Origin: a virus
Lineage: Duplodnaviria; Heunggongvirae; Uroviricota; Caudoviricetes
Length of the DNA: 12,246 nt
Reading direction: 5' to 3' (one strand)
IMG/VR virus record: IMGVR_UViG_3300040801_001888
The notes below the pieces were generated by a model that worked only from the letters and a program-made list of their open reading frames with translations, had not been told where the DNA came from and ran no database searches. Shown one piece after another: positions 686 through 12,246 of the stretch (the stretch's first letter is position 1; every line of letters begins with the position of its first letter). The position numbers and the translations under genes are program-made.

Positions 686-900
686 CACGTAGACCCGATT
701 TGACGCCGGAGCAACGCGATCGCGTCTCCGGACTCATCCAACGGGCACACGTTGCCATCAACCATCCGGTGACGGCGGGACCGCGTTGGGCCAAGTACGA
801 TTCGAAGCGCGTGCGGTTGGCGCTAGACGCCCTATGGGAGTCCCATTTGATCCTGACAGGCGGGCACGTGAAAGACACGGAAGGCAATGAAGCTTCCTGA
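682..900 (+). CDS. Hypothetical protein, 72 aa, between terS and terL
   Basis: ATGA overlap with the terS stop (682-685) and 14-nt overlap with the terL start; no recognised motif. Confidence 0.65.
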   Translation: MTRRPDLTPEQRDRVSGLIQRAHVAINHPVTAGPRWAKYDSKRVRLALDALWESHLILTGGHVKDTEGNEAS

Positions 901-2686
901 CAACCCCCTGGCGCGGGCCTGCGAGCAGACCCTGCGCCGCCAATTCAACGCCGCCGAACCGGGATCGAGCCAGCACCAGATACTGAAACGGGTGCTGGAG
1001 TTCCCGTTCTCGAAGTACCCCGACACCACGGCACCGTGGCATCTGCTGACGCACGACCCGGCGCACATGCGCTGGGATCACGTCGCCGATGTCATCGAGA
1101 TCATAGATAGCCTGCGCCAGCCCACGGGCAGTTCCATGGGGCAGCCGATCACGTTGGAACCGTTCCAGGTGATCATCGTGCTGGCGTTCCTCGGTCCGGA
1201 AGACCCTATTACGCAGAAGCGGGTGGTCCGCGAAGGCTTGCTGACCCTTTCGAGAAAATCGGGGAAAACCGCGTTGATAGCAGGGTTAATTACCGCCCTG
1301 CTCTCCCTCAGCCCAGACAACTACGGTCTGCTTGGACAAGAGATCCAGGTAGGCGCGTCCGACCGCGAGCAAGCGGGCATTCTGTTCCAGATGGTCGATC
1401 GCATGATCAGCCTGGACAACTCGCTCGGCATCAGCGAAAAGTTCAAATCGGTCCCATCGAAAAAACTGCTCAAGCATTCGAGTACGCTGACGCAATTGCG
1501 CTGCCTCTCATCGGACGCGCATCGCCATCACGGTGGTAATGCTGCAATCATTCTGATCGATGAGATCGGCAACGTGAGCAGCGCGCAAGCGGAGGAGTTC
1601 TATTCCGTTCTGACCACGGGCGATGGCGCACAGGCGGAACCGCTGACGTTTCTCTTCTCGACGCAAGCGGCGACGGACCAGCACTTCTTCAGCGTCGCGG
1701 TCGATCGGGCGAAAGCGCTCAATGAAGGCAAGCTCACCCCGGACTCCTTCGCCGGGTTCGTTTTCGAGTTGCCAGAGACGGACGCCGCCGGCGAGAAAGT
1801 CGACCCCTACGACGAGGATTATTGGTATCTCGCCAATCCCGGACTGGGCACGATTACCAATGTGCGCTCGATTCGCGACTGGGCGACCAAGGCGAAAGAG
1901 ATGCCCTCGCTGGAGAACAAGTACCGTCTTCTGAAAATGAACCAGCGGGTGAGCGAGACATCCGGTTACGTCTCGCGCACGGTCTGGGAAGAGAACGCAG
2001 GCGGCGGGCTACCGGACCCCTCTGAACTTTACGGGCGTGCATGCTGGCTCGGACTCGACCTGTCCGAGACCACCGACTTGACCGCGCTGGTGGCGATCTT
2101 TGAGCCGCCCCTGGATGACCTCGACGGGCTCATGGACGTGTTGCCCTACTTCTGGATACCCGGCGACGACCTGGAGGCGCGCTCGAAGCGCGATCACGTT
2201 CCCTATACGCAATGGGCGCGCGAGGGTCTCATCGACACCAGCTCGGCGCGCACGATCGACTACGGCAGCATCGCGGACCGGATCATTCACATGATCGAGA
2301 ACTACGACGTGCAAGGCCTCGGCTTTGACCGCTACCGCATGAAGTACGTCATCGCGGCGCTCGCCGAGAGGAAGTACGAGTGGGGCGAGGACGACACGTT
2401 CCTGGTGCCGATCGGACAGGGCTTTCTTGATCAGACCCGGTCGCTGCAGGTGCTGGATGACCTACTGCTAAACCGGAAGCTGCGCCACGGCAACCACCCC
2501 ATCCTGAAATGGAATGCCGCTAATGCCGTGGTAGTCAAAGACCCGGCGAACAACCGCAAGATTCAAAAGGCGCGGTCATTCGGGCGGGTCGACGGGCTGG
2601 TCGCTCTAGCGCTTGCCGCGCACGTCCGGGGCGACTCGGGGCTGGTTAGCTCGGTCGAATTCTCAGCGGAAGCCTTGATCGGCTAG
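887..2686 (+). CDS. terL: Terminase large subunit (HK97-like, Terminase_1 type)
   Basis: 599 aa; ITLEPFQ motif, Walker A SRKSGKT, Walker B IILIDE, nuclease-domain motifs GLDLSETTDLTA, FDRY and VDGLVALALA. Confidence 0.97.
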   Translation: MKLPDNPLARACEQTLRRQFNAAEPGSSQHQILKRVLEFPFSKYPDTTAPWHLLTHDPAHMRWDHVADVIEIIDSLRQPTGSSMGQPITLEPFQVIIVLAFLGPEDPITQKRVVREGLLTLSRKSGKTALIAGLITALLSLSPDNYGLLGQEIQVGASDREQAGILFQMVDRMISLDNSLGISEKFKSVPSKKLLKHSSTLTQLRCLSSDAHRHHGGNAAIILIDEIGNVSSAQAEEFYSVLTTGDGAQAEPLTFLFSTQAATDQHFFSVAVDRAKALNEGKLTPDSFAGFVFELPETDAAGEKVDPYDEDYWYLANPGLGTITNVRSIRDWATKAKEMPSLENKYRLLKMNQRVSETSGYVSRTVWEENAGGGLPDPSELYGRACWLGLDLSETTDLTALVAIFEPPLDDLDGLMDVLPYFWIPGDDLEARSKRDHVPYTQWAREGLIDTSSARTIDYGSIADRIIHMIENYDVQGLGFDRYRMKYVIAALAERKYEWGEDDTFLVPIGQGFLDQTRSLQVLDDLLLNRKLRHGNHPILKWNAANAVVVKDPANNRKIQKARSFGRVDGLVALALAAHVRGDSGLVSSVEFSAEALIG

Positions 2687-2886
2687 CTCGCAGCAGGCAG
2701 CAGAGGCCCGGACCGATGCTTGCGGTTCTTGTCGATCTGCTTGCAGCGGTTGGAGCAGAACTTCCCGGTCTTGATGCCTCGGAAGTGCGTCCCGCAGACC
2801 GCGCAGTTGTGATCGACGATCTCCCGTTTGGCGGCGGCTTCGCGGGGAGTCATTGGCTTTCGGTCAGTGATTCGTCTGTTCATCAT
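2683..2886 (-). CDS. Small basic C4 zinc-finger protein (CxxC...CSxxC), antisense to the late operon
   Basis: 67 aa; CAVCGTHFRGIKTGKFCSNRC has the four-Cys spacing common in small phage Zn-finger proteins; its TAG overlaps the terL TAG in the palindrome CTAG (2683-2686). RBS is weak. Confidence 0.7.
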   Translation of the reverse strand: MMNRRITDRKPMTPREAAAKREIVDHNCAVCGTHFRGIKTGKFCSNRCKQIDKNRKHRSGPLLPAAS

Positions 2887-2918
2887 GTGTTCGCTACGGT
2901 GTCCAAATAGTAAACCCC

Positions 2919-2947
2919 AGTATAAGAGGCTCTAGTGTCAATGTATA
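2919..2947 (-). promoter_or_regulatory. Candidate leftward sigma70-type promoter for the Zn-finger gene
   Basis: Minus strand TATACA (2947-2942), 17 nt, TATACT (2924-2919). A perfect TTGACA (2941-2936) is also present but only 11 nt from this -10, so the geometry is ambiguous. Confidence 0.3.
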
Positions 2948-2968
2948 GTCCCCGCTTCCACGAAAAAG

Positions 2969-2996
2969 TTGACATTTCCTGCGCGGTCGCTATCCT
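2969..2996 (+). promoter_or_regulatory. Sigma70-type promoter (TTGACA-N16-TATCCT), expected start near 3003-3004
   Basis: Perfect -35 at 2969-2974, -10 at 2991-2996, A-tract (AAAAAG) directly upstream, AT-rich island in GC-rich DNA. Confidence 0.65.
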
Positions 2997-3002
2997 GCTG
3001 GG

Positions 3003-3212
3003 TATGTGCGAAGCGCGAAACAGACCCCCGCCAGGTCAGCGCCGAAAGAAGGACCAGCCCCCCTTCGACGGCGACTAGCCTTCGCACGCCTCATTCTTAC
3101 CGAGCAACGGACCCCCGGTCTCGGTAGCCACCTACCTCTTGGTGCGGCTACCATGCTCGATTCTCGCTTCCTGACTCACCTCCTTTTGACCCGCCTTGCG
3201 GCGGGTTTCTTT
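3003..3212 (+). ncRNA. Putative structured RNA or attenuator leader (~210 nt)
   Basis: Bounded by a promoter and a terminator. Stems: GTGCGAAG 3006-3013 / CTTCGCAC 3080-3087; TACCGAG 3098-3104 / CTCGGTA 3120-3126; GGTAGCC 3123-3129 / GGCTACC 3146-3152; anti-SD tract TCACCTCCTT 3176-3185. Family not identified. Confidence 0.55.
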
Positions 3213-3248
3213 GTGCGCGCGTCATTCGCGCGGGATGAGCGTCCGTGA
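3153..3248 (+). CDS. Candidate 31-aa leader peptide spanning the terminator (MLDSRFLTHLLLTRLAAGFFVRASFARDERP)
   Basis: ATG 3153 with GGTG 8 nt upstream; its TGA (3246-3248) overlaps the GTG (3245-3247) of the next ORF. This is the 3' part of track ORF 3006..3248. Could be incidental. Confidence 0.3.
   Translation: MLDSRFLTHLLLTRLAAGFFVRASFARDERP
3188..3212 (+). terminator. Intrinsic (Rho-independent) terminator
   Basis: Stem ACCCGCC 3189-3195 / GGCGGGT 3200-3206, loop TTGC, with TTTCTTT at 3206-3212. Confidence 0.8.
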
Positions 3249-3421
3249 GTGCCGAGCAATCCGGCGGGGTCTCGTCCTGCGAGCGCCCAATGACGCTGCT
3301 CGAGATTCTCACGCGTCGGCCCATGACCGAAGAAGAGTCCGCCGCGTTTCAGAACCTGCTGCGCAACATCGAGAGTGCGCGCAACCCGGAACACCTTGAT
3401 AGCGAGGACGCCCCCGCATGA
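3245..3421 (+). CDS. Small hypothetical protein, 58 aa from GTG 3245 or 43 aa from ATG 3290 (not in ORF track)
   Basis: Translates (M)SAEQSGGVSSCERPMTLLEILTRRPMTEEESAAFQNLLRNIESARNPEHLDSEDAPA; the TGA at 3419-3421 forms an ATGA overlap with the protease start; GGGATGAG lies upstream of the GTG. Confidence 0.55.
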   Translation: MSAEQSGGVSSCERPMTLLEILTRRPMTEEESAAFQNLLRNIESARNPEHLDSEDAPA

Positions 3422-4062
3422 ACAAGAAATTCACGACCGGCTACATTCAGAAAGTCGCTCCTGCGTCATCTTCTGACGACGATATGGAGCTGGACGAGCC
3501 AGACGTGCCCGCCTACGCAGGCAGTTTCGTCCTGAACGAAGAGTCTCCGGATCGAATGGGCGACGTGATCGTCGCGTCGGGCTGGGACTTAGCCAACTTC
3601 AAGCGGAATCCGATCGCCCTATGGATGCATGAGTCGGACGAACCGATCGGCACCTGGGAAAACGTCAAGGTCGCGGGCAAGCAACTGGTCGGCGATCTGA
3701 AACTCGGCACGAATGACATGGCCCAGATGACGCGTAAGCTGATCGAGGAGGGCATCCTTCGTGCCGTGTCGGTCGGCTTCCGGGTGCTCGACTATGAGCC
3801 GATGGATCAGCAAGATCCCTGGGGTCCGTGGTTGATCAAAGCCGCTGAATTGCTTGAGGTTTCCGCAGTATCAATTCCGGCCCATCCAAACGCCCTCCGT
3901 ATTTCCAAAGAGTTCGGCCTGAACCGGGCTCAACGTGAACTGATCTTCGGCGCGTCTTCTCCCGCCGTGCAGATCGATCCCGCCGTTCGGGAAAAAGCGA
4001 CCCATCCAGCGGTTATCCGCGCCCGGCACATCCTCGCGGATGCCCAAAAATCCCTGCGCTGA
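3418..4062 (+). CDS. HK97-family prohead maturation protease
   Basis: 214 aa; DRMGDVI...GWDL..FKRNPIALWMH, AVSVGF and ELLEVSAVSIPAHPNA, carrying the His and Ser catalytic motifs of caudoviral prohead proteases; GAGG RBS upstream. Confidence 0.95.
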   Translation: MNKKFTTGYIQKVAPASSSDDDMELDEPDVPAYAGSFVLNEESPDRMGDVIVASGWDLANFKRNPIALWMHESDEPIGTWENVKVAGKQLVGDLKLGTNDMAQMTRKLIEEGILRAVSVGFRVLDYEPMDQQDPWGPWLIKAAELLEVSAVSIPAHPNALRISKEFGLNRAQRELIFGASSPAVQIDPAVREKATHPAVIRARHILADAQKSLR

Positions 4063-4104
4063 ACGCCCATCGGCGAACGCGCGAACATCTCATGGAGTAA
4101 GTAC

Positions 4105-5598
4105 ATGAACCTTTCCGAACGTATCCAGAAGTTGAGCGAGTCTATTGGTCCCCTGAAGGACCAGCTGAAGGCCCAGATGAAGACCGCCGAGGACTTGCAG
4201 AAGAAGTTCGAGTCCGACGACGCGGAAGAGGGCGACGAGAACCTCCCGGCCATGCTTGCCGCTGCCTCTGACGAGATCGTCAAGACCAAAGGCGAACTGG
4301 ACAAGCTGACCGAGCAGCGCGACAACCTGCTCAAGTTCGAGAAGTCCTTATCCGGTCGCGCCGCGCCCGCCACCCCTACGGCGCCGAACGTCATCAAGTC
4401 CCAGTATCGCAGTGACGACGACCGCCCCGGCATGCTGTTCGCCAAGATGCACGTTGCCGCAGCGATCGCCTACGCCCGTGGCGTGCAAACCGACCAAGTG
4501 ATGGACGACATCTACGGCGAAGACGAGAAGGTCATGGCCGTCTCGCAGTTCGTTCGGCAGAAGGCGGGCGTCGTTCCGGCTACCACGACTGGCGTGGGCT
4601 GGGCGGCTGAGCTGGTCCGCAACGAGACGCGTGGCTACCTCGACACCCTGCGCACGACCTCCATCGGCGCCGCGATCGCGACCCGTTCGATGGTCCTCGA
4701 TTTCGGCTCGGCCAACAGCGTGACCGTTCCGCGCCGTAACGCGATCGGTCTGCCTCCGACTGAGCCGGCGTGGGTAGGTGAAGGCGGCGTGATCCCGCTC
4801 CAGCAGTTCTCGTTCGGCGCCACCACGCTGAACCGCTACAAGCTGGCCTCGATCACTCCGTACACCGAGGAGATCGCCGAGCAGTCTATCCCGCAGATCG
4901 AGACCCTGCTCCTGTCCGCCATGGACGAGAGCTACACCGTCATGCTCGATACCGCCGTGATGTCCGCTGGTGCCGCTGTCGGTGGCATCCGCCCCGCCGG
5001 CCTGCTCAACGGCGTTACCCCGCTGACCGGTAGTGCTGCCGGCGGCTACGAAGCCATCGTTGCCGACATGAAGGCGATGATGACTGAGCTGTCCAACGCC
5101 CGTCTTGGCACGTCTCCGCTGTTGATCCTGAACGACGCCGACGCACTGTCCGCCAGCCTGGCAATGAACCCGCTGGGCCAGATGCCGTTCGCTTCCGACA
5201 TGGCTTCCGGTACGCTGCTGGGCGTTCCGTTCATCGCCAGCCAGAACCAGCCGCTCGGTCGCGCCACCATGGTTGACTGCGCCGCTTTGGCGACCGCGTT
5301 CGGTGCTCCGCAGATCCGCATGAGTTCCGAGGCGACCCTGACCATGGCCGACGCTGGTGCAGGCGCCCCGACTCAGGCTGATGATGGCTCGGGTGCCCTC
5401 GGCACCGCTGGACAGGTTCCGCCCGGTGGCGGCGCCAAGATCTCGGACATCGGCAGCGCCGGTGCCGCGTTCGCGGGCATCCAGGCGGTCAGCCTGTTCC
5501 AGACCGCCTCCATGGCGATTCGCGGTATCTGGCCGACCTCCTGGGGTGCCATGCGCCCGGGCCTGGTCTCCTCGACCGACGGCATCAACTGGGCGTAA
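4105..5598 (+). CDS. Major capsid protein, HK97 fold, with N-terminal coiled-coil delta domain
   Basis: 497 aa; GGAG at 4094-4097; charged helical N-terminus; AWVGEG..IP, YKLASIT, RPAGLLNG and VSLFQT...AIR motifs; strongly biased C-ending codon usage; follows the protease. Confidence 0.95.
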   Translation: MNLSERIQKLSESIGPLKDQLKAQMKTAEDLQKKFESDDAEEGDENLPAMLAAASDEIVKTKGELDKLTEQRDNLLKFEKSLSGRAAPATPTAPNVIKSQYRSDDDRPGMLFAKMHVAAAIAYARGVQTDQVMDDIYGEDEKVMAVSQFVRQKAGVVPATTTGVGWAAELVRNETRGYLDTLRTTSIGAAIATRSMVLDFGSANSVTVPRRNAIGLPPTEPAWVGEGGVIPLQQFSFGATTLNRYKLASITPYTEEIAEQSIPQIETLLLSAMDESYTVMLDTAVMSAGAAVGGIRPAGLLNGVTPLTGSAAGGYEAIVADMKAMMTELSNARLGTSPLLILNDADALSASLAMNPLGQMPFASDMASGTLLGVPFIASQNQPLGRATMVDCAALATAFGAPQIRMSSEATLTMADAGAGAPTQADDGSGALGTAGQVPPGGGAKISDIGSAGAAFAGIQAVSLFQTASMAIRGIWPTSWGAMRPGLVSSTDGINWA

Positions 5599-5666
5599 TT
5601 GCTCCGTGATGTGATCACTCGCGCCAGGGACGGCGCAACGCCAGCGGACTCAATCAGGAGGCACCT

Positions 5667-5942
5667 ATGCCTACCATCCTAGTGAACAAGAAGTTCAAGC
5701 TGATCAAGAAAGATGAGCTTGACGCGATGCTTGCCGCCGGCACGGCGCGCAAGTTCCCCGGCATGCCGATCTACGAGCAGTTGGAGACGCCTGCAGTGGC
5801 GGCGCCAGTGCCACCCAAGCAACCGGACCAGCCCGCCCCCGGTCCAGAGGACGACGAGAACGCGCCGACGCAGGACTACGCCACCAGAGAAATGCGGTCC
5901 AGTCGCGCGGCGTTGCGCCGGACCACGCGGAAGACCTCCTAA
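5667..5942 (+). CDS. Small hypothetical protein, 91 aa, Pro-rich middle and basic C-terminus (YATREMR)
   Basis: Strong AGGAGG RBS at 5656-5661; fills the gap between capsid and portal genes. Confidence 0.85.
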   Translation: MPTILVNKKFKLIKKDELDAMLAAGTARKFPGMPIYEQLETPAVAAPVPPKQPDQPAPGPEDDENAPTQDYATREMRSSRAALRRTTRKTS

Positions 5943-5969
5943 GGTCGTGCTATTCAGCAGAACCTTTTT
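5941..5969 (+). terminator. Weak terminator-like hairpin before the portal gene
   Basis: AAGGT 5941-5945 / ACCTT 5962-5966 outer stem, TGCT/AGCA inner stem, loop ATTC, T5 run at 5965-5969; contains a 2x2 internal loop. Confidence 0.3.
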
Positions 5970-5981
5970 CGGGGGCCGCTA

Positions 5982-7472
5982 ATGTCCGACTCCACCAACA
6001 ATCCGACGTGGCTACGGGGCGAAGCCCTCGATCGTTACATAGCCACAGGGCACGACCCCCTCGATGGCTACGCAAAGTCAGGCGGGAATTCAGGACGCGG
6101 ATTTGACCTGGTCGACTCACGCGGTCGCCCGCTGGTCATCGAGAAGGCGAACGGCGAGTGGAACGGTCCGTTCTTCGGCGCGGGCGAGAACGGAAATCTG
6201 TTCGAACTCGGACCGCTTGAACATCCCTTCCAACGCAATCTGCGGATCGGCGGGCAGGACGGCAACGCTGCCGCCTACGCATCCATCGCTGCCTATGCGC
6301 AGACGATGGCGACGATGGGCATGTACCACTACCGTCAGCTCGATAACGGCGGACGGGAGATGATCACCACGTCGGCGCTGTCGCGGATCTTGCGCTACCC
6401 GAACTGGTATCAGCATCTCAGCGACTTCATGCTGAACTTCGTCTTTGCGCTGATGACCACGGGCAACGCCTATGGGGTCGTGTTCCGCAACGACCGCAAC
6501 GAAGTCGACTCGATCCATTTGGTCCCCAGCACCAGCACGACGCCTTACGTCGAGACCGAGACGCAGTCGGTCTTCTACGGGATCGGGCCTAATCCGATGC
6601 TGCAGACCCCGATGATGCTGGTCCCGGCTCGCGACGTGCTGCATGTGAGGCTGTTTACCCCGCAGCACCCTCTGATCGGGGTCTCTCCGATCCGGTACGC
6701 GGCTTCTGCGATGTCGATCAACAACGCGATCTCGGGCAACCAGGCCGCGTTCTTCTCGAACATGTCGCGCCCGTCGGGCGTTCTCTCGACTGACGAGAAG
6801 CTGAACAAGGAGCAGATGGACGCGTTGCGCGCCGCGTGGGAGGCTCGGAGTAAGGGCATCAACGCGGGCTCGGTGCCGATCCTCTCTTGGGGTCTCAAGT
6901 GGCAGCAGATGACGATCACTTCCGAGGACGCCCAGCTGATCGAGGCGTACCGGATGTCTACCGAGGATATTGCTCGGGTATTCCGTGTGCCGCTCGCCCT
7001 GATCGGCGACTACACCAAGGCGACCTACAACAACACCGAAACCATGATCAACGCGTGGCTCTCCACCGGGCTGGGCTTCCTCATGGAGCACGTCGAGCGC
7101 AGCTTCGAGCAGTTCTTCAAGCTGCCCCCAGACCAAGGGGTCAACTTCGACGAGACCGTGTTGCTACGGACCGACTTCGACACGCGCATCAACGGTCTGA
7201 CCAAGGCGGTCGCCGGCGGCGTCTACTCGCCCAACGAAGCCCGGGCACGCGAGAACCTGCCAGCGGTCGAGTACGGCGATGAGCCGCGCGTTCAGGCGCA
7301 GAATCTTCCCCTGTCCGCTGTCGGGACGATGCCAGAGACGCCTGCTACGCCTGCCACGCCCGCCACGCCGGGCGACCAGCCGCCTACCGATCCGGCGACC
7401 CCGGCGGACGAGCAGGCGAGCATAGGCGAGGCTCACGACGTCATTTTGAAAAGCATGGGGATTGCGGCATAA
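5982..7472 (+). CDS. Portal protein, HK97 family
   Basis: 496 aa; ILRYPNWYQ, MTTGNAY, DVLHVR....HPLIGVSPI, FFSNMSRPSGVL, IARVFRVP..LIG, TYNNTE, GVYSPNEAR..ENLP..EYGD motifs. Exact start uncertain. Confidence 0.96.
   Translation: MSDSTNNPTWLRGEALDRYIATGHDPLDGYAKSGGNSGRGFDLVDSRGRPLVIEKANGEWNGPFFGAGENGNLFELGPLEHPFQRNLRIGGQDGNAAAYASIAAYAQTMATMGMYHYRQLDNGGREMITTSALSRILRYPNWYQHLSDFMLNFVFALMTTGNAYGVVFRNDRNEVDSIHLVPSTSTTPYVETETQSVFYGIGPNPMLQTPMMLVPARDVLHVRLFTPQHPLIGVSPIRYAASAMSINNAISGNQAAFFSNMSRPSGVLSTDEKLNKEQMDALRAAWEARSKGINAGSVPILSWGLKWQQMTITSEDAQLIEAYRMSTEDIARVFRVPLALIGDYTKATYNNTETMINAWLSTGLGFLMEHVERSFEQFFKLPPDQGVNFDETVLLRTDFDTRINGLTKAVAGGVYSPNEARARENLPAVEYGDEPRVQAQNLPLSAVGTMPETPATPATPATPGDQPPTDPATPADEQASIGEAHDVILKSMGIAA
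7338..7370 (+). repeat. 9-bp tandem coding repeat (Thr-Pro-Ala x3 plus TP) in the portal C-terminal tail
   Basis: ACGCCTGCT ACGCCTGCC ACGCCCGCC ACGCCG. Confidence 0.8.
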
Positions 7473-7473
7473 T
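7446..7473 (+). promoter_or_regulatory. Sigma70-type promoter (TTGAAA-N16-CATAAT) in the portal 3' end, expected start near 7480
   Basis: -35 at 7446-7451, -10 at 7468-7473 (5/6 each); the -10 includes the portal stop codon. Confidence 0.55.
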
Positions 7474-7480
7474 GAATGCC

Positions 7481-7570
7481 GCACTGGGTAGGGTAGCTCC
7501 CGAACAAGCGGTTTACCGTGCCGCTTTCCCAGTGCCCCCCTTCCACGGTGCGATCAGTAACGGTGCTGAT
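7481..7570 (+). ncRNA. Structured cis-regulatory RNA leader (three-way junction plus pseudoknot or kissing loop)
   Basis: GCACTGGG 7481-7488 / CCCAGTGC 7528-7535; GGG-TAGCT-CCC 7491-7501; AAGCGG 7506-7511 / CCGCTT 7521-7526 with loop TTTACCGTG complementary to CACGGTG 7544-7550; ATCAG 7553-7557 / CTGAT 7566-7570 abutting ATG 7571. Confidence 0.6.
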
Positions 7571-9097
7571 ATGAAACGTCTTGATCTTACCGGACAGCGG
7601 TTCGGGCGCCTTGTCGCTGAGTCTATTGCTGGGCCTGAGTGGCTATGCCGATGTGATTGCGGCGGGCAAACGCTGGCTCGCGCCGGGCACCTTCGGCACG
7701 GCAACGTCACGTCATGTGGATGCTCGCGCGATTTTGATAGTGACATTATCGGGAAGCGTTTCGGACTGCTGACGGTCACGGGAAGAGACTCAAAGGGCTA
7801 CGTGGCTCAGTGCGACTGCGGGAACACTACGCACGTTACGCGACGATCTCATCTGACCGGTGGCGGTGTTCGATCCTGCGGGTGCATCCGAGGACAGAGC
7901 CGGATACGCGACATTACGGGGCAACGATTCGGTAAGCTGATCGCGCGCTCGCGCACGCATGAAGGCGAGTGGGTGTGCGAATGTGACTGTGGCGGGACGA
8001 CGACGGTCCGGACAGACCACCTGACCGGCGGGCGCACCGTGTCGTGCGGGTGCCAGAGGGTGGAGTCTAAGCGAGTCAATACCGAGGTAAATGCCGTTGG
8101 AGAAACCTTCGGCAAGCTCACCGTCACGGAAGTCTCGTGGCGCGAAGATAGATGGCACAGCGTCGCGTGGGCCAATGGAACGTGTGAATGCGGAAACACG
8201 TTCGAGTCGCGTCTAGCTGATCTCAAGAATGGCACGACCCGTACCTGCGGGTGTGGTACGCACGTCTCCGGGATAGAAGAGGAGTTCGTCAGCTTTCTGC
8301 AGGATCTCGCGCCAGTGCGTCCGCAGTACCGTATCGGACGAAGAGTCTTCGATGCCGCGTTACCGGATAGGAACCTGTTGTTCGAATTCAACGGGGTTTA
8401 CTGGCACAGTTACCCCAGAACAAAGCGCGCGGCTCATGCTGACAAGAGGCGCGCTGCCGAAGACCTCGGGTTTCGCGTCATCTACGTATGGGAGGATCAA
8501 TGGCTTTACCGGACCCAGCAAGTCAAAGACTACCTGGAGCGCGTGCTGCTAGGGGCGAAGCGCAAAATAGGCGCACGGCAACTGATACCACACGACGTCC
8601 CACGTACCGACGCGGTGGCATTTCACGAGCAGTTCCATCTGCAGGGCTTCAAGAACACGATCTCCACGCTGCACTTCGGGCTGAGTTCGAAGCAAGGCGA
8701 ATTGCAAGCCGTGGCTAGCTTCTCACCTGACGGGACGCTGCACCGGTACACCGTTCGCTCGGGGGTATCCGTAGCCGGCGGGCTACCGCGAATGGTGAAA
8801 GCGTTTAGCGCGGCCACGCCGACTGCCAGCAAAGTCATCACGTTCTGCGATCGTGACCACTTCTCCGGCGGTGTCTACGAGCAAGCGGGCTTCCAGAAAA
8901 CGGGGCATTCACTGACAATGAGCTACGTGCAAAGACGCCGCAGACTTCGCCGTGAGCATTTCCAGAAGCACAAGCTCCCCGGTATTTTCAACGATGTCGA
9001 TATGTCACAGAGAGAGATCGACATCTGCGCGGCGAACAGCATCTACGCGTGCTGGAATTCGGGCGTGGACCGCTACGAACTGAGTCTCCGAACATGA
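7571..9097 (+). CDS. Hef-like putative homing endonuclease: four Cys4 Zn-binding repeats, Vsr/DUF559-like nuclease, C-terminal Mom-like GNAT-type domain
   Basis: 508 aa from ATG 7571 (541 aa from ATG 7472, which overlaps the portal stop). Four D(L/I)xGxxFGxL...CxC...(S/T)CGC repeats (7571-8254); SxxE...FD...FEFNGVYWH...GFRVIYVWEDQW nuclease motif (8267-8503); FHLQG..HFGL..ELQAVASF..LHRY..GG..VITFCDR..GGVYEQAGF tail. Confidence 0.8.
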   Translation: MKRLDLTGQRFGRLVAESIAGPEWLCRCDCGGQTLARAGHLRHGNVTSCGCSRDFDSDIIGKRFGLLTVTGRDSKGYVAQCDCGNTTHVTRRSHLTGGGVRSCGCIRGQSRIRDITGQRFGKLIARSRTHEGEWVCECDCGGTTTVRTDHLTGGRTVSCGCQRVESKRVNTEVNAVGETFGKLTVTEVSWREDRWHSVAWANGTCECGNTFESRLADLKNGTTRTCGCGTHVSGIEEEFVSFLQDLAPVRPQYRIGRRVFDAALPDRNLLFEFNGVYWHSYPRTKRAAHADKRRAAEDLGFRVIYVWEDQWLYRTQQVKDYLERVLLGAKRKIGARQLIPHDVPRTDAVAFHEQFHLQGFKNTISTLHFGLSSKQGELQAVASFSPDGTLHRYTVRSGVSVAGGLPRMVKAFSAATPTASKVITFCDRDHFSGGVYEQAGFQKTGHSLTMSYVQRRRRLRREHFQKHKLPGIFNDVDMSQREIDICAANSIYACWNSGVDRYELSLRT

Positions 9098-12000
9098 ACG
9101 TCACTGAATTCACTCCGCGTCACGTCGCCGAGGCGACCGGGCGCATCATCAAGCAGCAGCGCGAAGAGATCGGTGTCGAGCTGACGCGTCTGGAGAACGG
9201 ACTCAACGACCTCTCGGATGCCATCGTCTCGACAGACAAGGCGATCCGCGATGACGCCAAGGCAACCTACGCCAACCTGCAGAATGGTCTTGGCGAGCTG
9301 AAGCACCGGATCGACCTACTCGATCAGCAGGTCAAGGCAGCTCCGCGTGAGGATCTCGGACCGCTGCGCGAGTCCATTGCGGAGCTGCGGGCGCACGTCA
9401 AGCTGGTCGAGAAGATGACCGGTCCGCGTGGCGCGAAGGGAGACCCTGGACAGCGTGGTCCGGAAGGCGCGCGCGGGCAGAACGGCAAAGACGCGAACCC
9501 GAAGGACGTTGCGAAGGTGCTCGCCACCGAGCACCGCGACATTCTCCGGGGCGAAAAAGGCGACCCAGGCGTCCAAGGACCAGCTGGTCGCGATGGCGCC
9601 GATGGCAAAGACGCCACGCCCATCGACCCGTCGCACGTCGCCAAGGCGCTTGTCAGTGAGCACCGGGACATCCTCCGGGGCGAGAAAGGCGATCCAGGCG
9701 TTCAAGGTCCAGCGGGGCGCCCTGGCGCCGACGGCAAAGACGCCCTACCAGTTGATCCGAAGCACGTCGCCAAGGCGCTCGCCGAAGAGCACCGCGACGC
9801 CCTGCGCGGCGAGAAGGGTGACACTGGTCCCGCCGGTCCCCCCGGACAGGGTCTCGTCGGTGCGCAAGGCGACCCGGGCCCGGCGGGACCGCCCGGGCGG
9901 GACGCTGATCCGGAAGAAGTCGCACGCAAGATGGCGGAACGCTACGCGTACCTGCTCACAGGCGAGAAGGGCGCGAAGGGCGAACGTGGCGAGAAGGGCG
10001 AACGTGGCGAAGCGGCGTCCCCGCAAGCGGTCGCGCGCGAATTGGTCCTCGATCACCGTGACCTGCTCAAAGGCGAGCGTGGCGAGCCCGGCAAGCGCGG
10101 CGAGAAGGGCGAGCCAGGTCCGCGCGGTCCGGATGGGGCGCCCGCCGATCCAGCGGTTGTTGCGAACATCCTGGTCGAGAAGTACGCCGAGATCATCTCG
10201 GGCAAGCGGGGCGAGAAAGGCGACCCAGGACCCACGGGTCCGATCGGCCCGAAAGGCGCGGACGGCTTCGCCATCGGAGCCAACGCGCCGTTCTGGGAGC
10301 GCGGCGCCATCTACGTTGAAGGCGACGTCGTCCAGTACGGCATGGGCAAGCTTGCCCGCTGCATTAAGCGGACGAACACCAACCCGCGCAACCGCACCGA
10401 CTGGGAGCGCATTGGCGCGGTCGGGCTGGACTACCGGGGCTATGTCAAGGCGGAAGATACAAGCACGCTCGAGAACGGCGACTTCTTCACGCAGGACAAC
10501 TCGATCTTTCTGAAGTACGGCGACAAGGTGAAGCTCGTCGTGAAGCGTCCGAAGCCGGGCGACCCCGGGCGGGACGGGCGCGACGGCAAGGACGGCGCGG
10601 ATGGACCGACCCCTCTCGCGGTTGCCGTGAAGGACGGCAAGCTGGTGTCGCTATGGAGCGACGGCAACGAGATTGAGTTCACCGGGTTTGAGGACGCGCT
10701 GGAGCGCAAGGTCAAGTTCTTCATGGAGCAGTCCGAAGAGGACCGTTTGCGCCAGATCGAGATCGAGCGCGGCATTCCGCTGCGCGCTTTCAAGGGTTCG
10801 CACAACCGCACGATCGCCTACACCAAGGGCGACATCGTCAGCGCATCGAAGAAGCAGTACATCGCGATCAACAACGTGCCGGCTGACCGCAGCATCAACC
10901 CGCAGGACTGGTCGGAGTTCAGTGGTGGCGGTGGCGGTGGCGGCATGGCGTCTTCCTCCGCGTCTCTCGGAACGGCGGGCTGGTATAACGAGCGCAAGGT
11001 CTACAAGCCGGGCGACTACACGACAAACTACGATCCGAGTCGCCCTACCACGTTCACCACGATGTGGCAGAACCAGACTGGCGCCAGCATCGGGCCTGAG
11101 CCATGGGATGTATCCCAATGGACCCCGATCAGCTCCAGCTACTACTCGGCGTGGGGACAAGAGTTCACCAACACCGGTCTGGTATCCGGCGGGCAGATCA
11201 CCGTCACGGGCGCGACCCAGCTCACGGTAGCCCCGGGGCAGGCGCTGTTCGTGGACTCGTTCAATTCCAGCAACGTCACGTCGAACCTCGTCGAATGGAC
11301 CGACCCGATCGTCGTCGACATCCCGGACATCGTCACGGACCACTTCTATTACCTGTACATGATCAGTACAGGGGAGATTCGCCACTACACGAATCAACCG
11401 AACACCGCGACCAACCGTTTCCAGGTCTTTCTGGGCACCGTAGCGGTGGACCCGGACAGACCGTTCCAGATCGGTGATCTGTTGAACTGGCCCTATCTGG
11501 CGCAGGAAACAGCATCCAGCTTCCACGATGTCCAGCAGTTGTTCTTCAAACCGCAGGTTGTCTCTGGTGGTGCGATCTCACCCGTAGACGGCGCGTTGCA
11601 GGTCAACATGGCGCCAGCGCGGCTGTACGCCCGTGGATGCAACTTCTACAACAACCCGGCGCAGCCGAACGAAAAGACTTCGGCGGGTTTCTCGCCGCTG
11701 GAGTTTGAGTACGTCATGGACGGGGCCACGGTATCCAGCCCGCCGTTGTCCGATTTCGACTCCGCGCAGTACAACACCATCATGAGCGGCGGGCTTCAAC
11801 CGGTCGATCCAGGCAAAGCGCAGATACAGCTGATCTACTTCTCGCTTGCGGTGGAGAAGTTCTACGTCATCTACGGGCAAGAACTGTATGACACGCTAGA
11901 CCAAGCGATCAACCAGATCCCCAACTATTCCGCGTCTGTCATTTTGCCGAGAGCATTGACAGAGAACGGGCTGTTCGTTGGCTACGTGGTCATGGTTGCG

Positions 12001-12246
12001 AATGCGACCAATCTCGCGGATAAGACCACGTCGCTTGTGCGCAGTGCAGCGGGTTCGCAGGCGCAAGGCGCGGGGCAGGTCGTTGAGGAACTCGACGGTC
12101 TGACTGACGTGACCTTGTTCGACCGTCGACAAGGGCAGACGCTGGTCTTCGACCAGGCGGCGGGCAACTGGACCAACCAGACCCCTAGCAACCTTGGCGT
12201 CTGGATAACACAAGCCAGTCACGGGCTTAGCGCCGGGCAGGCAGTG
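9094..12246 (+). CDS. Large collagen-like virion fibre or decoration protein, partial (1051 codons, open at window end; not in ORF track)
   Basis: ATGA overlap with the endonuclease stop; I translated it with no stop to 12246. N-terminal coiled coil, eight Gly-X-Y blocks, three W/F-x-Y-xx-GD aromatic modules, Gly7 linker, duplicated VSGGxI motif, and LDGLTDV..GQTLVF...WTN fibre motif. Confidence 0.92.
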   Translation, partial: MNVTEFTPRHVAEATGRIIKQQREEIGVELTRLENGLNDLSDAIVSTDKAIRDDAKATYANLQNGLGELKHRIDLLDQQVKAAPREDLGPLRESIAELRAHVKLVEKMTGPRGAKGDPGQRGPEGARGQNGKDANPKDVAKVLATEHRDILRGEKGDPGVQGPAGRDGADGKDATPIDPSHVAKALVSEHRDILRGEKGDPGVQGPAGRPGADGKDALPVDPKHVAKALAEEHRDALRGEKGDTGPAGPPGQGLVGAQGDPGPAGPPGRDADPEEVARKMAERYAYLLTGEKGAKGERGEKGERGEAASPQAVARELVLDHRDLLKGERGEPGKRGEKGEPGPRGPDGAPADPAVVANILVEKYAEIISGKRGEKGDPGPTGPIGPKGADGFAIGANAPFWERGAIYVEGDVVQYGMGKLARCIKRTNTNPRNRTDWERIGAVGLDYRGYVKAEDTSTLENGDFFTQDNSIFLKYGDKVKLVVKRPKPGDPGRDGRDGKDGADGPTPLAVAVKDGKLVSLWSDGNEIEFTGFEDALERKVKFFMEQSEEDRLRQIEIERGIPLRAFKGSHNRTIAYTKGDIVSASKKQYIAINNVPADRSINPQDWSEFSGGGGGGGMASSSASLGTAGWYNERKVYKPGDYTTNYDPSRPTTFTTMWQNQTGASIGPEPWDVSQWTPISSSYYSAWGQEFTNTGLVSGGQITVTGATQLTVAPGQALFVDSFNSSNVTSNLVEWTDPIVVDIPDIVTDHFYYLYMISTGEIRHYTNQPNTATNRFQVFLGTVAVDPDRPFQIGDLLNWPYLAQETASSFHDVQQLFFKPQVVSGGAISPVDGALQVNMAPARLYARGCNFYNNPAQPNEKTSAGFSPLEFEYVMDGATVSSPPLSDFDSAQYNTIMSGGLQPVDPGKAQIQLIYFSLAVEKFYVIYGQELYDTLDQAINQIPNYSASVILPRALTENGLFVGYVVMVANATNLADKTTSLVRSAAGSQAQGAGQVVEELDGLTDVTLFDRRQGQTLVFDQAAGNWTNQTPSNLGVWITQASHGLSAGQAV
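9532..9822 (+). repeat. 129-bp (43-aa) period coding repeat in the collagen region
   Basis: HRDxLRGEKGD anchors begin at 9532, 9661 and 9790; the first two units differ mostly at third codon positions. Confidence 0.9.

Follow-up and report, generated by a model that had tools for sequence, protein, structure and literature searches.

Predicted int-alpA-type RNA with an antisense loop in the leader of a phage homing-endonuclease gene

Why should the gene of a phage homing endonuclease be preceded by an RNA that starts to fold at the predicted beginning of the transcript and reaches up to the start codon? The question is raised by a 12.2-kb fragment (12,246 nucleotides (nt); hereafter the window) of the IMG/VR viral contig IMGVR_UViG_3300040801_001888, in which such a leader lies between the portal gene and a predicted homing-endonuclease gene. 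A first-pass annotation, made from the letters of the window, had described a three-way junction, one loop of which was thought to toggle between two copies of a short complementary motif, and had left the element without a family name. We find that the stretch is a real, conserved and folded RNA leader of a catalogued family without known function: its relatives are int-alpA RNAs (Rfam RF02996). The original observation is confirmed, and the interpretation attached to it is partly supported.

Results

A junction loop with two complementary sites

The leader is preceded by a sigma-70-type promoter-like site (Table 1), the predicted start of which, ~7 nt past the CATAAT box at ~7480-7481, falls on the first base of stem P1, as the first-pass annotation had claimed. 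Taken alone, the promoter scan does not reach significance (3 sites versus 2.0 expected). The three-way junction formed by P1 and the hairpins P2 and P3 is the minimum-energy structure of the core folded alone (-26.1 kcal/mol). Its loop L3 can pair with two sites further downstream, as had been noted: 7514-7520 forms seven pairs, one of them G-U, with site 1 at 7544-7550 (-9.6 kcal/mol), and six pairs, again with one G-U, are predicted with site 2 at 7560-7565 (-7.8 kcal/mol). ACGGTGC occurs in the whole window at these places only (7545-7551 and 7560-7566), and 0.3% of 20,000 dinucleotide-preserving shuffles of the leader gave at least two complementary sites that were 5 nt or longer. The Shine-Dalgarno-like GGTG (7562-7565), which precedes the ATG by 5 nt, forms part of site 2; this site is presented in the loop (7558-7565) of hairpin P4, whose stem (7553-7557/7566-7570) abuts ATG 7571-7573; the placement of the Shine-Dalgarno sequence in a hairpin that ends directly at the start codon had thus been described correctly.

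Assignment to the int-alpA family

Relatives were collected with the 14-mer GGGTAGCTCCCGAA from the window, and all family counts given here are among the matches listed. The 14-mer was found in at least 119 viral contigs, which bears out the statement in the first-pass annotation that a similar core occurs in other phage gene leaders. The number of matches alone could be due to chance; their contexts, however, are not fortuitous, and nearly all of them share one layout. This layout comprises a variable 5' strand, (C)TA, the 14-mer, AAG and a variable hairpin, followed by CTG, the complement of the 5' strand and two short copies of the loop complement, the second just before the ATG.

When 12 relatives were compared with Rfam, eight scored 36.7-50.5 bits with the curated covariance model of int-alpA RNA, above its gathering threshold of 35.8 bits. 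The GGGTAGCTCCCGAA core is identical in the window and in these eight contigs (L064, L043, L019, L006, L009, L014, L029 and L077). Rfam, the database in which the first-pass annotation would have had the element looked up, thus identifies the relatives but not the window copy: the whole window gave nothing at gathering threshold, and 7380-7680 had no int-alpA match even at E up to 10. A minus-strand hit to PhotoRC-I (9.4 bits) obtained at that relaxed setting was dismissed as a chance match. Since 4 of the 12 clear relatives also fail, the curated model appears narrower than the family. A covariance model of our own, R1, was derived from a seed of 27 canonical relatives with a hand-given structure and with the window left out; this smaller seed was used because a MAFFT alignment of all 58 cores misaligned the 3' half. 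R1 matched 7481-7535 over its full length with 40.5 bits (E 2e-12) and with all 15 pairs formed, and this was its only match in the 12-kb window.

int-alpA was introduced by Weinberg et al. in 2017 as a candidate structured RNA, typed as a small RNA, of unknown function (PMC5737381). It shares with the window the order P1, UA, a short P2 hairpin, GAAAA, P3 with a loop of 7-10 nt, CU and the closing strand of P1, as well as the complementarity of the P3 loop to the 3' tail, within which site 1 falls. J12 (UA) is identical in the window, whereas J23 is GAACAA (one insertion and one change), J31 is UUU instead of CU, and the P1 closing pair is G-C instead of C-G. The neighbours also differ, being portal and Hef-like endonuclease genes in place of int and alpA. 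A blastn search of 7300-7700 against 50,697 phage records found no match. Judged by the covariance-model score and the shared junction, the window element is a divergent member of the int-alpA family that Rfam misses.

The Rfam model ends after site 1, so that P4, site 2 with the Shine-Dalgarno sequence, the start codon and the promoter lie outside it. In an incomplete literature collection, we found no function for int-alpA, whose name occurs as a gene order or as a list entry, and neither the identifier RF02996 nor a description of site 2 on the Shine-Dalgarno sequence, of P4, of the promoter or of a link to homing endonucleases.

Covariation of stems and loop pairings among relatives

Owing to the collection by 14-mer, P2 and its flanks are conserved by construction, and independent evidence resides in the other parts of the RNA. 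In the model-fitted alignment of 62 sequences, P1 and P3 carry standard pairs in 89% of cells compared with 61% in shuffles, and 274 cells are changed on both sides as against 86 ± 8. The covariation score of the two stems is 0.642 and drops to 0.116 or less once the partners are displaced by 1-3 columns. P1 is closed by C-G in 48 sequences, by A-U in 12 and by G-C in a single one; the window has the compensatory pair G7488-C7528, and G-C is also present in L136 and L137, which were found with a G-specific pattern.

The pairings of L3 were assessed with one locus per distinct loop (63 loops), counting perfectly complementary sites, 5 nt or longer, within the final 50 nt of the leader. At least one such site exists for 61 of the 63 loops, compared with 13.2 ± 3.2 when loops were permuted among loci, and at least two exist for 42 (2.1 ± 1.4 permuted). 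A site lies in the site 1 zone in 53/63 cases (5.2 ± 2.2) and at the Shine-Dalgarno position, corresponding to site 2, in 48/63 (8.7 ± 2.7). The family medians relative to the start codon are -28 for site 1 and -13.5 for site 2, and the respective values in the window are -27 and -11. Site 1 is the stronger partner of L3 in 28 of 38 relatives, with a mean duplex energy of -8.9 versus -7.8 kcal/mol for site 2. The best stem around site 2 (P4) averages 5.3 base pairs (bp) versus 3.97 ± 0.16 with permuted 3' strands and reaches at least 5 bp in 28/38 relatives (11.1 ± 2.5 permuted). Its 3' strand includes the Shine-Dalgarno AGG in many relatives, whereas the window carries its Shine-Dalgarno sequence in the P4 loop.

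The surroundings of the junction recur as well. TANNNT ends 3-11 nt before P1 in 35/59 relatives, compared with 9/59 in a control window shifted by 15 nt. The first 8 nt after P1 are 68% pyrimidine in the family versus 45% in the downstream open reading frames (ORFs), with a U-rich run in 18/59 relatives; the window spacer is not U-rich. Since the -10 box, the junction, both sites and P4 recur in relatives, the conserved unit runs from the promoter through junction, spacer and site 1 to P4, which presents site 2 on the Shine-Dalgarno sequence, and then to the start codon. With the exception of the endonuclease gene, the features named in the first-pass annotation, including the covariation of stems and loop pairing expected of homologous leaders, are found in more than 50 independent relatives. 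Covariation across these relatives thus backs the predicted fold, both loop pairings and P4.

Four contigs carry a second copy of the leader (L016:1640-1693, L047:2061-2114, L114:4930-4983 and L042:3843-3896). They keep the junction (CTA ... GAAAAG ... CCTG), differ greatly in P2 (for example ACCGATCATC or CCTTTAGCGGGG) and each pair a loop with targets of its own. Across the wider family, P2 is therefore variable, and a single phage may harbour several cassettes that differ in predicted specificity. A 5-nt CCTTG/CAAGG match is shared by the two copies of L047.

In a further set of contigs (L003, L021, L032 and L050, L098, L103, L113), the 14-mer stands a few bases after an apparent transfer RNA (tRNA) 3' end (GGTTCGAATCC... 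or GGTTCAAATCC...). In L050, L098, L103 and L113, the 14-mer follows GTC in place of CTA, and the arrangement downstream differs. The tRNA-adjacent contigs may represent a separate class that shares only the core.

The endonuclease gene and its start codon

The product of the gene behind the leader, expected to be a homing endonuclease from the first-pass annotation, displays N-terminal repeats (LTGxRFGxL...CxCxCG), a Vsr/REase-like region and a C-terminal domain. It matches phrog_559 (1.2e-48), phrog_374 (2.2e-48) and phrog_3339 (9.5e-48), and tblastn aligns it with annotated Hef-like homing endonucleases of Campylobacter phages at 83-96% coverage and 22-26% identity. It is thus a predicted nuclease of Hef-like type with a predicted role in homing. 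Model R1 found no copy of the leader at the relatives of this endonuclease in viral contigs (L121-L132).

A second candidate start codon, ATG 7472, shares bases with the stop codon of the portal gene (TAATG); no stop codon separates it from ATG 7571 in the common frame, which yields an ORF of 541 amino acids. Gene callers would likely choose this longer ORF, and the leader RNA would then be hidden inside the coding sequence. The evidence favours a start at ATG 7571 (508 amino acids), because family profile matches begin at residue 32-34 of the longer ORF and because relatives begin right after site 2; in several of them, the protein behind the leader starts with M-x(3-6)-L-[TS]-G-x-[RK]-[FI]-G at this point, as in the window. 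ATG 7472 is best read as an accident of a -10 box placed on a stop codon. For annotation, the gene start is thus 7571 instead of 7472, and part of the family is lost at the Rfam threshold.

Genes behind the leader in relatives

We scanned 78 downstream ORFs of relatives from viral contigs, with overlapping family counts; for the most part they encode nucleases, DUF1376 or replication proteins and small products. Eleven belong to phrog_374, the family of the window's own endonuclease, and Pfam domains include HNH (10), HNH_5 (7), HNH_3 (6), Endonuclease_7 (3), NUMOD4 (3) and GIY-YIG (2). Nine ORFs are of DUF1376 or primosomal type, two are Bro-N and many are small. By eye, about 30 of the 78 are nuclease-like, a minority of the relatives. 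In Edwardsiella phage GF-2 (L133:2533-2584, record bases 4134-4185), the motif lies outside coding sequence, with a head-morphogenesis gene on one side and an ORF of 56 codons on the other.

Genomic context in the window

The last 27 bases of the portal gene contain the promoter-like site of the cassette (Table 1). The closest relatives of the portal protein in deposited phages are from Burkholderia and Ralstonia phages (32-37% identity); relatives of this protein, sought for a cassette-free site, were found neither in viral contigs nor in genome contigs. The portal C-terminus (7330-7420) is a proline/alanine/threonine repeat (PATPATPATP...). The G+C content of the endonuclease gene is slightly lower (58-61%) than that of its flanks (63-70%). 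Downstream, the ORF with collagen triple-helix repeats may encode a fibre protein. The GTG at 9049 that is listed as its start lies within the endonuclease gene, giving an overlap of 49 nt, and may be an incorrect call. The sequencing runs in which the stretch is listed are all DNA runs, with no RNA run among them: a microbial-mat sample, which may be its source, and soil runs with small shares.

The head genes (887-7472) follow the order terminase, protease, capsid, portal, which is unusual compared with HK97-type modules, where the portal gene normally comes directly after the terminase gene. The gap between terminase and protease genes (2919-3207) contains the best promoter-like site of the window (TTGACA-16-TATCCT, 2969-2996) and, ~190 nt past it, a strong terminator-like hairpin (3188-3207, 8 pairs, then TCTTTG). 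This gap may hold a short independent transcript or a small gene.

Table 1. Coordinates of the leader elements and genes in the window
Feature	Position	Strand	Details
Sigma-70-type promoter-like site	7446..7473	+	TTGAAA 7446-7451, 16-nt spacer, CATAAT 7468-7473; 10/12 positions match
Three-way-junction RNA core, int-alpA type (predicted)	7481..7535	+	model R1, covariation, minimum-energy fold
P1	7481-7488 with 7528-7535	+	GCACTGGG with CCCAGTGC
J12	7489-7490	+	TA
P2	7491-7501	+	GGG 7491-7493, loop TAGCT, CCC 7499-7501
J23	7502-7507	+	GAACAA
P3	7508-7524	+	GCGG 7508-7511 with CCGC 7521-7524
L3, variable antisense loop (predicted)	7512-7520	+	TTTACCGTG; complementary to 7544-7550 and 7560-7565
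J31	7525-7527	+	TTT
Spacer from P1 to site 1	7536..7543	+	CCCCCTTC; pyrimidines only
Site 1, proximal L3 partner	7544..7550	+	CACGGTG; predicted pseudoknot, duplex -9.6 kcal/mol
Hairpin P4	7553..7570	+	ATCAG/CTGAT, loop TAACGGTG; displays site 2 and Shine-Dalgarno sequence
Site 2, second L3 partner	7560..7565	+	ACGGTG; duplex -7.8 kcal/mol
Hef-like homing-endonuclease gene (predicted)	7571..9097	+	508 amino acids from ATG 7571
Large terminase gene	887-2686		
Prohead protease gene	3418-4062		
Major capsid gene	4105-5598		
Portal protein gene	5982..7472	+	Pfam Phage_portal, E 4.6e-75; stop TAA 7470-7472
Collagen-repeat protein gene	~9049 to 12246		>1066 amino acids, open at window end; Pfam Collagen E 1.8e-21

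Discussion

The leader is situated at a promoter-like site and in front of a gene of an identified family. We are highly confident that the loop pairings are functional, and the leader likely controls translation initiation. On balance, we favour the view that the element exerts antisense control of translation start within a self-contained cassette of promoter, leader RNA and endonuclease gene, which lies in a phage between its portal and collagen-like genes. A transcript initiated from TTGAAA-16-CATAAT would begin at the first base of the junction RNA. Junction and P2 would provide the conserved scaffold and L3 the variable antisense sequence for two sites in its own leader. On the nascent full-length messenger RNA (mRNA), L3 would pair first, and more strongly, with site 1, giving rise to a pseudoknot that leaves the ribosome-binding site available. 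If free of site 1, L3 would instead engage site 2 in a loop-loop complex and block the 30S subunit. Free L3 might be supplied by junction RNA released through termination, as at the U-rich run of some relatives, or through cleavage in the pyrimidine-rich spacer, or by the same molecule once the pseudoknot opens. Released junction RNAs, which lack site 1, would bind the displayed site 2 of other transcripts, so that the nuclease would be made only at a low, self-limiting level. Under this scheme, each of the three conserved elements would have a role. Three steps of the model are inferred: the promoter fires, pairing at site 2 lowers rather than raises translation, and free copies work in trans.

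Several points weigh against this antisense model. In cis, the ribosome-binding site should be mostly free, because site 1 emerges first during transcription, follows P1 at a distance of 8 nt and binds L3 more strongly; repression therefore needs a pool of free RNA. In the window, P1 is followed by neither a U-tract nor another terminator that could release such RNA (none between 7536 and 7571). Its GGTG Shine-Dalgarno sequence is weak and is placed in the loop of P4 rather than in the stem, and the conservation of P2, a result of the 14-mer collection, is uninformative. Over 7481-7580, an alternative fold beats the consensus fold by 1.8 kcal/mol, in an energy model without pseudoknots that leaves the loop pairing uncounted; it joins the 5' strand of P1 (GCACUGG, 7481-7487) to the site 1 region (CC-ACGGUGC, 7543-7551). 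Among relatives, this pairing was not noticed as a general feature. Finally, the related IsrK, with a similar layout, activates translation (PMC4825925), and the leader might do likewise.

The first-pass annotation had a single molecule toggle between the two copies. In its full form, this would be a purely intramolecular two-state switch, in which L3 flips between site 1 (on) and site 2 (off) when triggered, for instance, by temperature, a ligand, a protein or ribosome traffic, with junction and P2 as the sensor. Both sites do occur in one leader at fixed distances, junction nucleotides and P2 are conserved beyond the apparent need of an antisense scaffold, and the mean duplex energies of the two pairings are close. 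However, no trigger is known, and without one the partition would be static and nearly all 'on'; the supposed decoy, site 1, is transcribed first, is nearer and is the stronger partner here and in most relatives. The divergence of P2 in sister copies on the same contigs also argues against a fixed ligand pocket there. We thus consider the toggle unlikely.

A structural 5' module, in which the junction locked by site 1 protects the 5' end from decay or marks a processing site, seems decidedly improbable. As a tRNA-like or RNase P site, it would separate the cassette mRNA from read-through late transcripts, and site 2 would have no regulatory role. This proposal agrees with the start of P1 at the predicted transcript start, with the end of the Rfam model after site 1 and with the combined length of P1 and P3 (~12 bp), which may resemble an acceptor/T-arm stack. 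The c4 and CI RNAs of other phages are, moreover, matured by RNase P. A CCA after P1, as in RNase P-type substrates, is by eye not consistent among the relatives, however, and the proposal leaves unexplained both the covariation of site 2 with L3 at the Shine-Dalgarno sequence and the covarying hairpin that frames site 2.

For transcription attenuation, whereby L3 pairing would stop transcription before the nuclease gene in a Rho-dependent or intrinsic manner, there is a precedent in the P4 CI RNA, which acts on two complementary sites, seqA and seqC, and causes premature termination by pairing with them (PMC4825925). The U-rich run after P1 in some relatives would fit such a mechanism, whereas the window is devoid of a terminator-like site at 7536-7571 and has a C-rich spacer. 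As the location of site 2 exactly on the Shine-Dalgarno sequence throughout the family points to the ribosome, we regard attenuation as very improbable. That 7472-7570 is no RNA at all and instead encodes a 33-residue N-terminal extension, coupled to the portal gene via TAATG, is scarcely credible: 33 codons would stay open by chance with a probability of ~0.4 at this G+C content (base-composition estimate), no Shine-Dalgarno sequence precedes 7472, the leader is intergenic elsewhere, as in GF-2, its helices covary as RNA, and profile matches as well as the proteins of relatives speak for the later start.

The antisense model assigns a concrete, testable job to int-alpA, for which the literature searched offered no function, on the basis of the window and its relatives. 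If true, it would explain how many phage mobile nuclease and add-on genes are kept at low expression without a protein regulator, by a small scaffold that is retargetable via one loop and two short sites. A wider reading is possible, though we rather doubt it as a whole: the int-alpA class might be a widespread programmable antisense module, carried along with homing-endonuclease and add-on cassettes among phages whose hosts differ widely. Its released copies would then serve in trans as cassette-specific repressors and confer a c4-like immunity for single genes, and a universal host factor, for example RNase P or the ribosome, would recognise the invariant scaffold.

Comparison with known RNA regulators

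The window element resembles the c4 (P1/P7) and CI (P4) antisense RNAs in its apparent working. Both are located in the leader of the operon they control, have two complementary sites in their own transcript and are cut from the transcript carrying these targets. In phage P1, one site complementary to c4 covers a ribosome-binding site. The CI RNA is, furthermore, a three-way junction with the antisense loop in its second hairpin (Rfam C4, RF01695, clan CL00128). The element is nevertheless not a member of this family, because the C4 covariance model gave no match in the window (positive control phage P4, 74.9 bits) and because both sites are downstream of the RNA, unlike a1b1/a2b2 and seqA/seqC; those of P4 are located upstream and downstream. 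Conversely, R1 has no match in phage P4. The P1 stem comprises ~17 bp in c4/CI and 8 in the window. RNase P processing and immunity have been shown for c4/CI.

IsrK of the Salmonella prophage Gifsy-1 (RF01394) is likewise a promoter-proximal prophage RNA that exists both as a short small RNA and as the 5' part of a read-through mRNA and that sets the translation of the next gene via the downstream leader (PMC4825925). It differs in fold and sequence, activates by opening an inhibitory helix (PMC4825925) and possesses a clear Rho-independent terminator, in contrast to the window.

Ribosome-binding sites of phage homing endonucleases are commonly masked by RNA structure, as described for I-TevI, I-TevII/III, Aeh1 mobE and T4 segB (PMC3014915). 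The T4-type hairpins and the window element alike represent local RNA structures where translation of a phage homing endonuclease begins, next to a promoter of its own, and share the presumed purpose of keeping nuclease synthesis low or delayed. Whereas these hairpins are simple, enclose the Shine-Dalgarno sequence or the AUG in their stem and are not homologous to each other, the window presents its Shine-Dalgarno sequence in a hairpin loop that is matched by a distant loop, part of a conserved three-way junction, and adds a second site for the latter loop.

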